A stretch of 64,000 bases of DNA from Fistulifera solaris (taxonomy: Eukaryota), in assembly GCA_030295235.1 (NCBI GenBank), contig AP026144.1, positions 1 to 64,000 of the forward strand, read 5' to 3'. Both the position numbers and the translations under genes were made by a program. Below are positions 3,872 through 8,560 of this stretch, piece after piece. The notes below the pieces were generated by a model that was not told the origin of the DNA, did not search any database, and saw only the letters and a list, made by a program, of their open reading frames with translations. Positions within the stretch are counted from its first letter, which is position 1; the number at the start of each line of letters is the position of its first letter.

Positions 3872-6800
3872 ATGCCCGATTTTCCCGACATTGTGAATTG
3901 CTCTGTTACGCTGGGAAAAGATCAGGATTTCACATACTTGCACAGCGTCGCTTGGGGCGCTTCACGAGATGATCCAGGCTATGATACGGATCAAACGTTA
4001 GCGCCACGTCCCCGCAAATCACTCGATGTATGCGATTGTCCTCCGGGGAGTACTTGCCTCGACAATTCCTGCATTCTGTTTGCATGTTTCGAAGAGTGCA
4101 CACGCTGCAACAATCCGTCTTGTCAAAACAATAGACTGCAGCAAAGACAATTCATACCAACAGAAATCTTTGATGCCGGGCCGAAAGGAAAAGGACTTAA
4201 AGTCACAGAAGCTGTAACGTGTGGTTCTTTAATCACTGAGTACACGGGTGTTGCAGTGCGAGCAAAGCATCTTAATCGATTGTTTCGCCGCTATCAATTT
4301 GATCGCCGATTATACATTCTTGCGCTCGATAACGATACTTACTTGGATGCGAGGCATCAAGGAGGTGCGGCTCGATTCATTAACCATTCTTGTGCGCCAA
4401 ACTGCCAAATGGAACGATGGAAGGTCAAGGGTGTCTTAAGAGCCGCTGTAGTGGCGCTCAAGGATATTCCGGCAGGTACCGAATTGACCTTTGATTATCA
4501 GTGGGAGCGACAAAGGGGACGCGCATCCACAGTATGCCACTGCCAAACACCGTCGTGTCGAGGGACACTTGAGGTACAAAAGTCACACACGGATCAGCTC
4601 ATGGACGAAATCTCGCAAGGGCATTGGTTAGATTGGAAGGTTAAGCCAGATCAAACATTAATCAATCGAGTCATTCGAGTATACTCAAAAGAACATGAGG
4701 ATTTCTTCATCGGAGAAGTCACGGATTACGATGGATCTATGAAACATCGCGTTTTATATAGACATACGATGAATGAGGTGTGGGAAGACTTAGCAGTTGA
4801 GACGTGGCAGGTCTTGGACGATCCATCGAGTTTAGACCCATCACATGTTATGATTGCTAAGAAGTTGCGATCGACAGAGAATGGCACCAACGGTAGTAGC
4901 AACAGTTTATCCGGTGAAACCACAGGCTTCCTTCCGGTAGGCAAGTTCGTAATTCACCACTATTTGCTGGTGCGAACCAACATCAAAGAGTTACTCTGGA
5001 GCAAGCACTACATCGAACGCTGCCACAGAAACTGTAGAGGTGTGCAAGTGACGGCGCATCGAGTTACGAACGCCGACTATCAGATTGACGACGCACACAG
5101 GGAGGATTATCAAAGACTATTGCAACAGTCGATGGATGGTACCGTGTGGAAATTGCTTCTCCAGGGTGGCGACATTCCTCAAGCCCACGAATTTTTGACG
5201 AAAGCCGTCGCCCAACTAGAATTTCAGGTCAACCAGCAGCAACAACAACAACAACAAAACCTACAACAACAATCTACCATTAATGACACACATTCTTTGA
5301 TTGTCCCGAGAGTCGTCGCCGACGCTTTGAATCAACGATTGCCATCGTTGCAAGACAGTTTTCGCTCCATATCCTTCCAGTGGGCGCCGTCAGAAAGCAA
5401 GTCCAAGCAATTCAGTCGTCTATGGATGGATGGCATTGGCGAAATGGAATGTGCTAAGGCGCAGCTATGGAGTTTAGTACAAGAATTATTGAAGGCGTAT
5501 GATATCGCGGATGCTATGAGTCAGCGATCACCACTAGGTTGGCTTGCAGGGACTTTGACACAAGAGCAGCTCGACCTACTGTACCCAGACAATCGGAAGA
5601 ATGGATTCACGAAACCAACATCATTTGTTGAATCTTTCGAGCACATGTATCAATGTACGATGTGGGTCCAAGATGAAGCAGACCGGGGTCGAATCGACTC
5701 CAAGAATCAACTCGTCATTTCGGACGCAAATCGGTGCAACGTATTTATTTACTGTGAGCCGGTCCATGTCGACCGTTTATGGAAGCTATTGTACAGTAGA
5801 GTAGAAGAACTGGAATGCGGTATTGAATTTTGGCCTATTCACCTATTCTTTTTCAACTGTTGAATGACAATTTCTTTGATTGGGTATACCGCAATTTTCA
5901 AACTCGTCTTTCCCATGATCCAATCTTGCGAGATCACGTTCGCGTCGAGGGTTCTAACAAGGCGCTTACAAAGGAAGTGGTCCAGTTGCAATGGGCGTGT
6001 TTCCAAGATTGCTGCAGAAGGGAAAACGACTGGATTTTTGGAAGAGACTGGACAACAGTGTCCATGTCGAAATCCGCTTTGAACAAGGTGTTGCCCGGCA
6101 CTCTAGATATATCGTCGGCGAACGCTAGTGCTCTGGAAGTTGCTGAGATCGTCAATCGTTTAAATCTACAACCGCAGGTCGCTCTCCATGCCGTTCTGCT
6201 TCTCTATCGGTTTGTCGCAATGGCAAAAGAACCAACAAAAGCCCGTGACGTGCAGTTAGCAAGCGTTTTCTTGGCAATCAAGTCAACAAAGCTAAAGAAG
6301 TGTATTAAGCTTGAGGCTGTAATTGAAGCAGGATATGCGACGCTTTACGGGTCTGGCGTGGTCGAAGCACGTGAGAAACAAGGTATCGCAAAAAAAGTTT
6401 TACAAGCTGAGCAACTCATAATAGATACGCTTTCGTATGATATATTTTGGAAAGGAACGTGTACGATAAGACGCCTCTGTGCTTCGGTACTCGCGCCGGA
6501 ACAAGTTGAATCCATCTGGAAATTGGTGTGCTCTGGTCAGGTTCTGAGTGCTGGTCCTGAAGTGTGGCTCAAGTACGGAGTTGAATACGTTTTTGCTGCA
6601 TGTGGGGTTTTGCTTCAAATGAATCTGAGCCTCTTGTTACCGGCTTTGTACCTTGTTCCTCTTAAGGTTTCTCAGGCTGCAGTATTTCTCGTGCAGTCTT
6701 CGAAATGGGGCAAACTGGAATCGAAACTGATCCCATCGCATCCCCTAGCTGAGCTTTCAGTCGAGGAATTGGAACGAAGAACCATTATTGATAAAGTCGT

Positions 6801-8560
6801 GTTGGGTACTCCACCTAGACGATCGTTGCCACTTGCGCGTGAACGCTGCCTTTTGCAAGGTATACCAATGAACGATGTAGCGGAGAAAATTTTGCCAGTT
6901 TTGAAGGAGTTGACACGGCAATCATCGGTCACGGTATATTTGTCGGGAGACGCAACAACGAAGAGCGCGCAGATTACTCTAGAAGGATCCTGGAAAGCTG
7001 TTGCTATCGCTGAGCATCTTATGCGAGATACTTTACAATTGGAGGTGCTTGAATTGAAACCCGACGCTTTCGACCCTTTTCGTTTCCGCCTTCCTATGAA
7101 TAAAGCCCCGCTTCTACTGGCATCAGATGATTTCCGTGCTGCTCAGACTTCGTGCGCAAAATCAACTATACCAGCTTCTAGCAAAGACTTTCGATTGAAA
7201 TGGTTACAAAACTGCAAGGGCTTCAGTCACACAGGGCTGATCGAAGATGCACACAGTGTTGCTTTTGCCGCTTCGAACTCTGACAATCTTTCTGTGGTTT
7301 TGGAAGAGCTTGCGTCGATCGTTGCCGACCCAAAGGATTATCCATATCTTTGCCGATCATTGAGCCAGACCTCGGAGAACAGTACCGGCGTTACGGTATC
7401 AATGCGGCAGTGGCCGCCTGAGAAAATACAGCGAAAAGAAACATCACCAGGATTTTCTCCGATGGCTCTGCAGGAGCTTCAGCTCTTAATGCAACTTCAC
7501 TCGTTGTCCATGACCGGTCACCCAAATATTTTACTGCCCATCGCTATTTGTCAGCCGGCACCCGAAAACACAGGGGCGCCCCCCTCACCAAGGCGAAGAC
7601 TCAAACTTGTTTTCATTATTTCGGTCAACGGAACTAAATAGCGAAGTGGCGGACCGCCAACGCCGATTGGAAGCCCACTTACATGTCGTCTGTCCGCCTA
7701 TTTTGTTCAACCTGCCGATCAAAGCTGATCTTTCTCCTAGCTTACTACAGAGTTGGTGTCACGATATCGTGGCCGCTGTTAAGCATTGTCACGATCATGA
7801 TATTCTAATTCGGGTTTGGCAACCAGAATTGTTCGTCGTTCTCGAAGATGGAACGTTGGCGTTGAGCTCATTCTATCGAGCTACCATTCAAAGAGAAAAG
7901 TCGGATCCCTATGAAGCGGCAAAGAAAGCGGCATGGAAAAGCAAAAACACCAAAATTAAAGAAGACAACAGAGAGCAAATTACGTCATTCACCGCCCCTG
8001 AAGTTTTGCTTGGGTGTCCTCAGCATAGCAAACAAACAGATGTATGGTCTTGTGCCTGTTTGATAGCACAACTGTTGCTTGGAAAACCGCTTTTTGTAGG
8101 GAAAGATCGAGATGCATTGCTACAATATCAGTACAAGATTGTCGGTGCGCCGTCACCAAATAACTATCGAAAGGCTATGAAGTATCCCAACTATGTGAAG
8201 CCTTGCAAGCATTATAGTCGTGGTGTCAAACACGCATTGGAGAGAATGTTCAAAAGGCCTCACCCTTTGACTGAAGTTTTGGATCAAATGCTTTGTTTAG
8301 ATCCTGCAGAACGCATTCCTTTTGAAAAAGTGTTGGATCATCCGTATTTTCAGACGAGCAACATCCAGCGTCTCGACTACGCGAACGATTGGTTACAATT
8401 TTCGAAGCTCCACAAGGATCGCGAAGTAAACGAGGAACGCAACAAGAAGCGTAAAGCCATGATCGAGGCTGCAGTTACCACTTTTGCCAATGGCGGGCGA
8501 GAGTTGGACGAATTGTACGACATTGATGAACCCCTGCTTAGCAAAAAGGCAAAGGAATGA
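3872..8560 (+). CDS. Multi-domain protein: AWS-SET-postSET (Set2/ASH1-type) + Tudor-like + cyclin box + CDK-like pseudokinase (two frameshifts)
   Basis: RFINHSCAPNC, ELTFDY, CHCQTPSCRG; cyclin-like LASVFLAIKS...EQLIIDTLSYD; kinase-like APEVLLG, DVWSCAC, LDPAERI...LDHPYF; three overlapping ORFs joined at T-run 5828-5831 and C-run about 7579-7584. Confidence 0.8.

Follow-up and report, generated by a model that had tools for sequence, protein, structure and literature searches.

A gene on the forward strand of a 64,000-nucleotide stretch of Fistulifera solaris DNA (NCBI GenBank assembly GCA_030295235.1, contig AP026144.1, positions 1 to 64,000; this whole stretch is called the window below) encodes a protein in which a SET methyltransferase core is followed, in this order, by a Tudor fold, KH-like folds, a double cyclin box, a further KH-like unit and a pseudokinase resembling the cyclin-dependent kinases (CDKs). 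The coding region occupies positions 3872..8560 and is a single intronless gene, deposited as the 1562-residue protein GAX11643.1 (P0030 below). The explanation that we favour, and in which our confidence is about even, is that this one gene specifies a SET-Tudor-KH-cyclin-pseudokinase protein, the cyclin and pseudo-CDK parts of which would pair to form a docking module directed towards RNA polymerase II (Pol II).

The reading frame between 3872 and 8560

In the window as assembled, the region is covered by three overlapping stop-to-stop open reading frames (ORFs) on the + strand, at 3665..5863 (frame 2), 5827..7641 (frame 1) and 7514..8560 (frame 2), the first two ending at stops in positions 5861-5863 and 7639-7641. 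When these ORFs were compared separately with Pfam, the first contained SET (2.8e-18) and the third the C-terminal two thirds of Pkinase (1.7e-18), and the middle ORF gave a weak Cyclin_N match (2.7e-4, 21.1 bits; cut-off 23). A preliminary description of the window, made from its letters and ORFs, had joined the three through single-base slips into one protein of about 1560 residues. The deposited protein and the contigs of a public run (X1, see below) both agree with this. The translated segments 3872-5851, 5854-7581 and 7586-8557, none of which contains a further stop, matched P0030 at 1560 of 1562 residues, with V1143A as the sole mismatch. The P0030 residues left uncovered by these segments, F661 and P1238, each lie exactly at a frame break. 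F. solaris also has a homeologous protein, GAX20693.1 (P0001; 1557 residues, 90% protein identity), which lies with GAX11643.1 in the best cluster found with the middle ORF; both are deposited as 'histone-lysine N-methyltransferase SETD2'.

The contigs of four public runs (X1-X4, which are RNA runs by guess only) were compared with positions 3800-8600; X1 contained 95% of the sampled words. At the first frame break, a run of five Ts at 5849..5853 (+ strand), the X1 contig carried six, with a T inserted behind 5848 (depth 28.3/28.3), yielding HLFFFQLLND as in P0030, P0001 and a further relative, P0002. At the second, a run of six Cs at 7579..7584 (+ strand), one base was missing at 7579 (19/19), and the resulting run of five yielded TGAPPHQGED as in P0030. 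A third difference, T in the window and C in X1 at position 7298 of the + strand (19/19), converted V1143 to A, again as in P0030. Each site was represented by a single X1 contig, and these three differences are exactly the three that separate the window from P0030. Since the run lengths in X1 restore the frame and match P0030, the stops at 5861-5863 and 7639-7641, on whose reality the preliminary description had hung, are not real: the frame breaks are mistakes in the window sequence or, at most, differences between strains, and the gene is an uninterrupted ORF. An intron at the first break (113 nucleotides, GT...AG, 5820-5932), which fits arithmetically, was rejected because P0030, P0001 and P0002 all continue across that site and the contigs show an added T and no joint; programmed frameshifting was rejected on the same evidence. 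P0001 and P0002 are continuous across both frame-break sites, and no joints were found in the run contigs across 3800-8600. A contig of run X2 covering 8114-8534 showed seven differences from the window over 421 bases, at positions where X1 agrees with the window; it may represent a second allele or the homeologous copy (that which encodes the 90% identical P0001).

Taken as given, the window with its two stops would also fit a broken gene, either a pseudogene or three genes with separate SET, cyclin-like and kinase-like products. We regard this as very improbable. In the X1 contigs both runs have, at full depth, the lengths that restore the frame, the deposited protein is unbroken, its homeolog, P0002 and the 95 family clusters described below are continuous and collinear, and the three stop-free segments are near-identical to the deposited protein; moreover, other genes of the window are split alike at runs of A, which points to assembly error. 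Two such genes were seen. At 10513-12602 (+ strand), two overlapping ORFs of different frames encode an HNOBA domain (5.5e-22) and a guanylate/adenylate cyclase catalytic domain (2.7e-57), and their overlap (11520-11604) contains a run of seven As (11545-11551); these are probably one soluble-guanylate-cyclase-like gene split by a homopolymer error or a short intron. A Patched/sterol-sensing domain at 60761-63389 (- strand) has profile positions 4-68 in one ORF and 65-155 in the next, in another frame, with a run of six As (62323-62328) inside the overlap (62310-62350); here too a single gene, NPC1/Patched-like, has probably been split likewise. Both splits fit an assembly with homopolymer errors. 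In practical terms, frameshifts at homopolymers divide genuine genes in the assembly of the window.

The SET core, the cyclin box and the pseudokinase

Conservation was assessed in an alignment (A1) of 44 full-length members of the family, of which the first 26 were scanned with Pfam. The N-terminal part of the protein is an AWS-SET-postSET core (residues ∼47-235; 4010..4576, + strand), detected by Pfam SET (1.4e-17) and by profile matches in the PDB. The catalytic motifs earlier called intact are present in P0030: NHSC (171-174), FDY (207-209) and the post-SET cysteines C222, C224 and C229 (CxCxxxxC). These motifs and the AWS cysteines were at least 90% conserved among the 44 relatives. The best solved relatives of the family profile were Set2 (6nzo_S, 7.2e-55) and SETD2 (1.1e-53), as the Set2-type assignment would have it, followed by ASH1L (1.2e-52) and NSD1 (3.4e-50). 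Judged by these matches, the core belongs to the H3K36 clade and is nearest to Set2/SETD2 by a small margin. The family is thus like Set2/SETD2 (KMT3A) in its AWS-SET-postSET core with NHSC, FDY and CxCxxxxC, and in its deposited name, SETD2; it differs in having neither an SRI nor a WW domain (0/26; 0/95), and in bearing Tudor, KH-like, cyclin and pseudokinase modules instead. With so small a margin over ASH1L and NSD1, the family is a candidate orthologue of Set2 itself and no more. The absence of SRI (PF08236), which the preliminary description had supposed, held throughout the family: none of the 26 scanned members matched it at E≤0.05, and none of the 95 family rows in a precomputed Pfam table carried it, whereas 8 animal SETD2 rows in the same table did.

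For the middle of the protein, residues 690-1110 were modelled from the family alignment with AlphaFold2 (AF2; model md398f2bda75b, mean pLDDT 82.5). The model contains a double cyclin-box fold, made of two tandem five-helix boxes, at residues 723-958 (6037..6744, + strand), where a cyclin box had been placed at ∼6130-6700. When compared with solved structures in VIA, the fold matched cyclin T2 (2ivx_A) with Z 19.0 and a root-mean-square deviation (rmsd) of 3.1 (222/256 aligned), the cyclin T1 entries with Z 19.2, the cyclin L2 entry with Z 18.1 and cyclin K (2i53) with Z 17.4; cyclin B1 and cyclin A3 followed with 16.2 and 16.0. The alignments to cyclins T2 and T1 span 222-223 residues, and the 50 matches listed were all in entries titled for a cyclin or a cyclin-containing complex. 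According to VIA's own note, helical models can reach Z 13-14 by chance; the cyclin values are well above this. Foldseek agreed, with all 11 matches at E≤0.001 lying in cyclin T1 or cyclin L2 entries (E 1.2e-4). Cyclin_N of Pfam matched at the same place in 19 of the 26 scanned members at E≤0.05, and 3 of the 26 reached the curated 23-bit cut-off; the relative P0179 scored 27.8 bits. The middle ORF, in which the presence of any cyclin fold had been in question, therefore gives structural matches to cyclins (Z ∼19) together with a marginal Cyclin_N sequence match, and the model points to a genuine double cyclin box, the fold of which is nearest to the transcriptional cyclins T, K and L. The few hits that phmmer returned for the cyclin region (Vps33 at 0.006 and two others, all weak) look like chance and were set aside.

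Eight residues of the cyclin region, R780, A802, K804, E847, D857, F859, W899 and Y906, are invariant (44/44). In the model, A802 and K804 lie in the third cyclin helix and E847 in the fifth. In cyclin A, a conserved Lys and a conserved Glu at these helices contact CDK2; K804 and E847 may be their counterparts.

The C-terminal part is a CMGC/CDK-like pseudokinase of residues ∼1171-1493 (7381..8350, + strand), close to the ∼7390-8350 first proposed, recognised by Pfam Pkinase, by profile and single-protein searches of the PDB and by its motif columns. In P0030, Pkinase was matched with 2.5e-17 over profile positions 94-263 only. For this part, the family profile found Pho85 (5.7e-35) and CDK2/CDK1 (about 1e-32), with Fus3 also among the best, and the single protein found Fus3 (2.1e-22), a CDK2-like chain (3.8e-22) and CDK5 (4.3e-18), with CDK12 also present. 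A search of long proteins with the kinase region gave 11 hits, namely 7 family members, 3 proteins named CDK12 and 1 kinase-only protein. The catalytic motifs are altered: VSMR stands for VAIK, IRV for HRD and SFY for DFG, while APE is retained. The HMMER alignment to the CDK2-like chain, in which HCHDHDILIRVWQPELF lies opposite HCHQHRILHRDLKPQNL and LALSSFY opposite LKLADFG, displays the substitutions read earlier as VSMR, LIRV and SFY, with HRD replaced by IRV, K by Q, N by L and DFG by SFY. The beta3 Lys, the HRD Asp, the catalytic Asn and the DFG Asp were each found in 0/44 relatives, and the column beside beta3 had a Lys in 2/44; the alphaC Glu and the P and E of APE were kept in 44/44. 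Because each of these four catalytic residues is absent from all the relatives, the whole family can be classed by sequence as pseudokinases, as had been said of this one kinase.

Within the predicted N-lobe, residues 1194-1206 (7450..7488, + strand) read GFSPMALQELQLL and are followed by HPNI, at the position where CDKs carry PSTAIRE or PITALRE. This stretch exceeds every other 13-residue window of the protein (1562 residues) in conservation, with a mean majority fraction of 0.88 against 0.84 for the best SET motifs, and its G1194, S1196, L1200 and E1202 are invariant (44/44). Two further conserved motifs flank the kinase N-lobe: GGKxCVAG (residues 1095-1102, ∼7153-7176), about 80 residues before beta3 and with an invariant K1097, and FSLFRSxEENE (residues 1240-1256, ∼7589-7639), in an insert before the C-lobe. 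Beyond the kinase, a basic KKRK patch (residues 1525-1528; 8444..8455, + strand), with the family consensus KRKAML followed by acidic DDLYD and with R1527 at least 90% conserved, is a putative nuclear localisation signal.

Between the SET core and the cyclin box, residues 237-658 were modelled from the family alignment in the same way (AF2 model m47c51f588ae9, mean pLDDT 84.3). Residues 258-315 (4643..4816, + strand) form a five-stranded Tudor (royal-family) barrel, which had been expected at 4660-4815. They matched the RDM15 Tudor (7de9_A) with a TM score of 0.88 and rmsd 1.2 in Foldseek, and with Z 10.7, rmsd 1.1, 57/58 residues aligned and 25% identity in VIA; the Tudors of Spindlin, SAWADEE, SETDB1 and PHF1 ranked below it. 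The Tudor aromatics Y296, W304 and W312, candidates for an aromatic cage that would hold a methylated residue, were at least 90% conserved among the 44 relatives. The KH-like segments proposed earlier were recovered as folds by both programs, as a tandem at residues 471-651 (5282..5824, + strand) that matched KH1-2 of IMP3 (6gqe) of the IMP/ZBP1 proteins in Foldseek (7.6e-5) and KH34 of IMP2 (6rol_A) in VIA, with a Z of 9.4 that is only moderate (rmsd 5.8, 149 aligned). An alpha/beta module at residues ∼364-432 (4961..5167, + strand; strand-helix-helix-strand-helix-strand in the model's secondary structure), for which no separate fold match was obtained, is possibly another KH-like unit. The unit that follows the cyclin box, at residues 991-1055 (6841..7035, + strand), has strand-helix-strand-strand-helix secondary structure in the model, and in the relative P0013 Pfam KH_1 scored 24.0 bits (cut-off 21.5) in a match that maps to residues 1010-1051. 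A GXXG loop between KH helices 1 and 2 is needed for nucleic-acid binding; none was seen where it would be expected in the four KH-like units, either in this protein or in the family consensus.

Distribution of the family and earlier descriptions

Among 1.84 billion representatives, only 58 matched the middle ORF at E≤0.001, all of them long multi-domain proteins or fragments. When it was compared with longer proteins, 29 hits of 1289-2244 residues were obtained, 27 of them with both PF00069 and PF00856. A profile search with A1 gave 95 clusters at 1737 bits or more; 92 of these carried SET and Pkinase in the precomputed annotation and 9 Cyclin_N. The wider search for SET, cyclin and kinase in one protein, which had been suggested at the outset, thus found the layout in 95 diatom clusters, with Cyclin_N precomputed only in the 9. 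Every source that carries a name is a diatom, with both pennates and centrics represented: Fistulifera, Nitzschia, Epithemia, Amphora, Mayamaea, Seminavis, Cyclostephanos and metagenome-assembled genomes of Bacillariaceae. Next in the profile search came one protein of the bolidophyte Triparma retinervis (594 bits), and below it were only SET-only matches, to animal SETD2 and NSD, none of them above 181 bits. The Triparma protein aligns collinearly with P0030 over SET plus Tudor (41% identity, 6e-56), the cyclin region (3e-7) and the pseudokinase (3e-22), the last of which reads RWPP...GFSPIALQELNLL and is without HRD or DFG. By these comparisons, pennate and centric diatoms and the bolidophyte Triparma share the layout; since the Triparma protein is collinear, the fusion predates the split between diatoms and bolidophytes. 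Cyclin and kinase are retained together in 44/44 aligned members and in Triparma.

No oomycete relatives appeared among the middle-ORF, profile and kinase-region searches or in two Atlas look-ups, all of them word- or cluster-limited and hence no evidence of absence. An Atlas look-up with residues 695-1515 of P0030 returned, among its nearest feature clusters, giant-virus (Nucleocytoviricota) clusters with kinase and Cyclin_N (score 0.95; Cyclin_N in 65% of 55 members). The same look-up returned an oomycete cluster with kinase and Cyclin_N ('Cyclin-F', Oomycota); both results are no more than leads.

The observations of the preliminary description hold in almost all details, its reading of the architecture is supported and its mechanism is plausible. 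It knew of no account of this architecture, and that statement stands in part. The gene itself is deposited under a machine-given name, SETD2, relatives bear the JGI name 'Protein kinase domain/SET domain', and there is a precedent in Phytophthora. In the parts of Judelson and Ah-Fong 2010 (PMC3019232) consulted, P. infestans PITG_14137 joins a histone-lysine methyltransferase, at the N-terminus, to a CDK-like kinase that is inactive, and has orthologues only in P. ramorum and P. sojae. As there described, PITG_14137 resembles the diatom family in carrying a methyltransferase and then a dead CDK-like kinase in the same order, and in being from a stramenopile; it differs in that the paper, in those parts, names no cyclin, Tudor or KH part, and the comparison is by description only. 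The same source reports four CDKs that contain a cyclin domain of their own, predicts them to be inactive and finds none in two diatoms. The oomycete, ciliate and apicomplexan CDK-cyclin fusions (PITG_21617 among them; PMC3019232) are, as described there, likewise natural covalent pairs with a kinase predicted inactive, one member of which keeps its PSTAIRE helix, like the diatom family. They differ, by that account, in placing the kinase before the cyclin, in having no SET domain and in being inactivated by a single Asp-to-Asn change, not by the loss of four residues.

Among diatoms, the text of Wu et al. 2023 (PMC10421102), as far as consulted, describes SETD2 homologs with AWS-SET-postSET motifs I-III in centric and some raphid pennate species, together with unexplained conserved motifs IV-VII; the word 'kinase' occurs 0 times in that text and no cyclin is named (figures and supplements aside). 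Compared by description only, these homologs share the AWS-SET-postSET core with the present family. The same source also reports that H3K36me3 has been mapped in diatoms, and Maumus et al. 2011 (PMC3145265), in the part consulted, merely lists SETD2 and ASH1 candidates. In full-text literature (that is, outside figures, supplements and subscription journals), no cyclin box, Tudor, KH or cyclin-pseudokinase pair was found described in such a SET protein. The architecture has therefore been only partly described in print; its unusual feature is a cyclin/pseudo-CDK module that accompanies a Set2-clade methyltransferase across the lineage.

Proposed pairing of the cyclin and the pseudokinase

In yeast and animals, two steps tie H3K36 methylation to transcription: the kinases of the Pol II C-terminal domain (CTD), Ctk1/CDK12 and Bur1/CDK9, phosphorylate the polymerase, and the SRI domain of Set2 reads the mark. 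The diatom protein resembles the transcriptional CDK-cyclin pairs (CDK9/cyclin T or P-TEFb, CDK12 or CDK13/cyclin K, Ctk1/Ctk2 and CDK11/cyclin L) in its two-box cyclin (Z 19.2 to 17.0) and in a CMGC/CDK-like kinase part with a PITALRE/PSTAIRE-like helix. It differs from them in holding both parts and a methyltransferase in one chain, in the marginal sequence likeness of its cyclin and in having a kinase without the four catalytic residues in 44/44 members. Under the explanation that we favour, the SET core would methylate H3K36, as its clade suggests, and the cyclin and the dead CDK-like domain would pair in the manner of CDK9/cyclin T and CDK12/cyclin K, with the cyclin box contacting the PSTAIRE-like helix. 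The pair would then be a non-catalytic docking or regulatory module linking the enzyme to transcribing Pol II; it might hold the CTD, or a CDK substrate or regulator, the job of SRI in canonical Set2 proteins. The Tudor fold may be a reader of methylated lysine, and the KKRK patch may mediate nuclear import.

Pairing within the chain is supported indirectly, because conservation peaks at GFSPMALQELQLL in a kinase that is dead, and because K804 and E847 are invariant and the cyclin and kinase have been retained together. Catalysis gives a dead kinase no grounds for keeping this helix, but a fixed binding partner would explain its conservation. In known CDK-cyclin pairs, the interface is formed by the alphaC helix and by the third and fifth helices of cyclin box 1. 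There is precedent in the oomycetes, where inactive CDK-cyclin fusions and the fusion of SET with an inactive CDK both occur naturally (PMC3019232). That the pair stands in for SRI is suggested by analogy with the known order in which a CTD kinase yields phospho-CTD, which is then bound by Set2.

Several observations weigh against this explanation. The likeness to PITALRE holds for motif, position and very high conservation, and does not extend to the alignment: the piece in which HMMER pairs GFSPMALQELQLL with GIPSTAIREISLL of the CDK2-like chain scores -1.6 and is not significant alone. The N-lobe is too diverged for Pfam, with 26/26 matches beginning at profile position 75 or later (75-263), and no glycine-rich loop was seen next to beta3, so that the N-lobe and its helix are predicted assignments. 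In P0030 itself Cyclin_N scores 19.6 bits (E 7.5e-4), below the 23-bit cut-off, and phmmer of the cyclin region alone against the PDB finds no cyclin. The margins of Set2/SETD2 over ASH1L and NSD are small, and H3K36 specificity is deduced by clade only. The SRI scan covered the family proteins only, and the same genome may hold a second, SRI-bearing Set2. Binding of the CTD by the pair is something that we infer purely by analogy.

The cyclin and kinase parts could instead be unpaired. The cyclin would then act as a scaffold in trans, binding and activating a separate, active kinase of the CDK9/12/Ctk1 type and so supplying the methyltransferase with CTD kinase activity, and the pseudokinase would bind another cyclin or partner. 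The partners of CDK9, CDK11, CDK12 and CDK13 are the nearest matches of the cyclin fold, and conserved residues sit on the first cyclin box, as would be expected in this case; the ∼210 residues and the KH-like unit that lie between cyclin and kinase force neither reading. We nevertheless consider an arrangement in trans unlikely, given the strict co-retention of both domains (44/44 members and Triparma) and the extreme conservation of the PSTAIRE-like helix in a dead kinase, which a partner in the same chain explains most simply.

A different possibility is that both folds are relics put to an unrelated use, as scaffolds for nucleic acid, for histones or for autoregulation of the SET core together with the KH-like and Tudor parts, with no CDK-cyclin contact and no link to the CTD. 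This would agree with the loss of all the catalytic kinase residues, with KH-like units that have no GXXG and with a very diverged cyclin box (23 of 26 members fall below the Pfam cut-off, and phmmer finds no cyclin); the salt-bridge residues that are invariant in canonical cyclins are seemingly not kept either. The parts of the chain that are best conserved, however, are those of the interface in known CDK-cyclin pairs, the alphaC helix and helices 3 and 5 of cyclin box 1 with K804 and E847, and we hold the use of relic folds to be doubtful.

The favoured pairing can be extended into the history of a natural Rosetta-stone protein, which we offer tentatively and think rather improbable in its full form: a CDK-cyclin pair of the CTD-kinase type would have been fused to a Set2-type enzyme and have lost catalysis while keeping its interface and its substrate docking, so that the dead kinase would now read its ancestral substrate, the CTD, and replace SRI in diatoms and bolidophytes.

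Three other features of the window were seen. The ORF just upstream of the gene, at 2681-3325 (- strand), matches the start of the GDA1/CD39 nucleoside phosphatase profile (7.2e-18, profile positions 6-115 of 423), and the remainder of this gene must be in other exons or frames. At 19590-22043 (- strand), three successive ORFs of the same frame (282, 270 and 263 residues) are parted only by single in-frame stops. At 276-1214 (- strand), some 800-900 bases are free of stops in all three minus frames, a hint of low-complexity or repeat sequence.

A major eukaryotic lineage thus has a Set2-type enzyme, a T/K-type cyclin and a CDK-like fold predicted not to phosphorylate in one polypeptide that lacks SRI. 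If the pair is the targeting module, this lineage would have a different evolutionary solution to the coupling of H3K36 methylation with transcription, the protein would clearly exemplify the conversion of a kinase into a binding module, and the fusion would link the CTD kinases and Set2 through gene structure alone. For diatom epigenetics, the family provides a concrete gene architecture to dissect.

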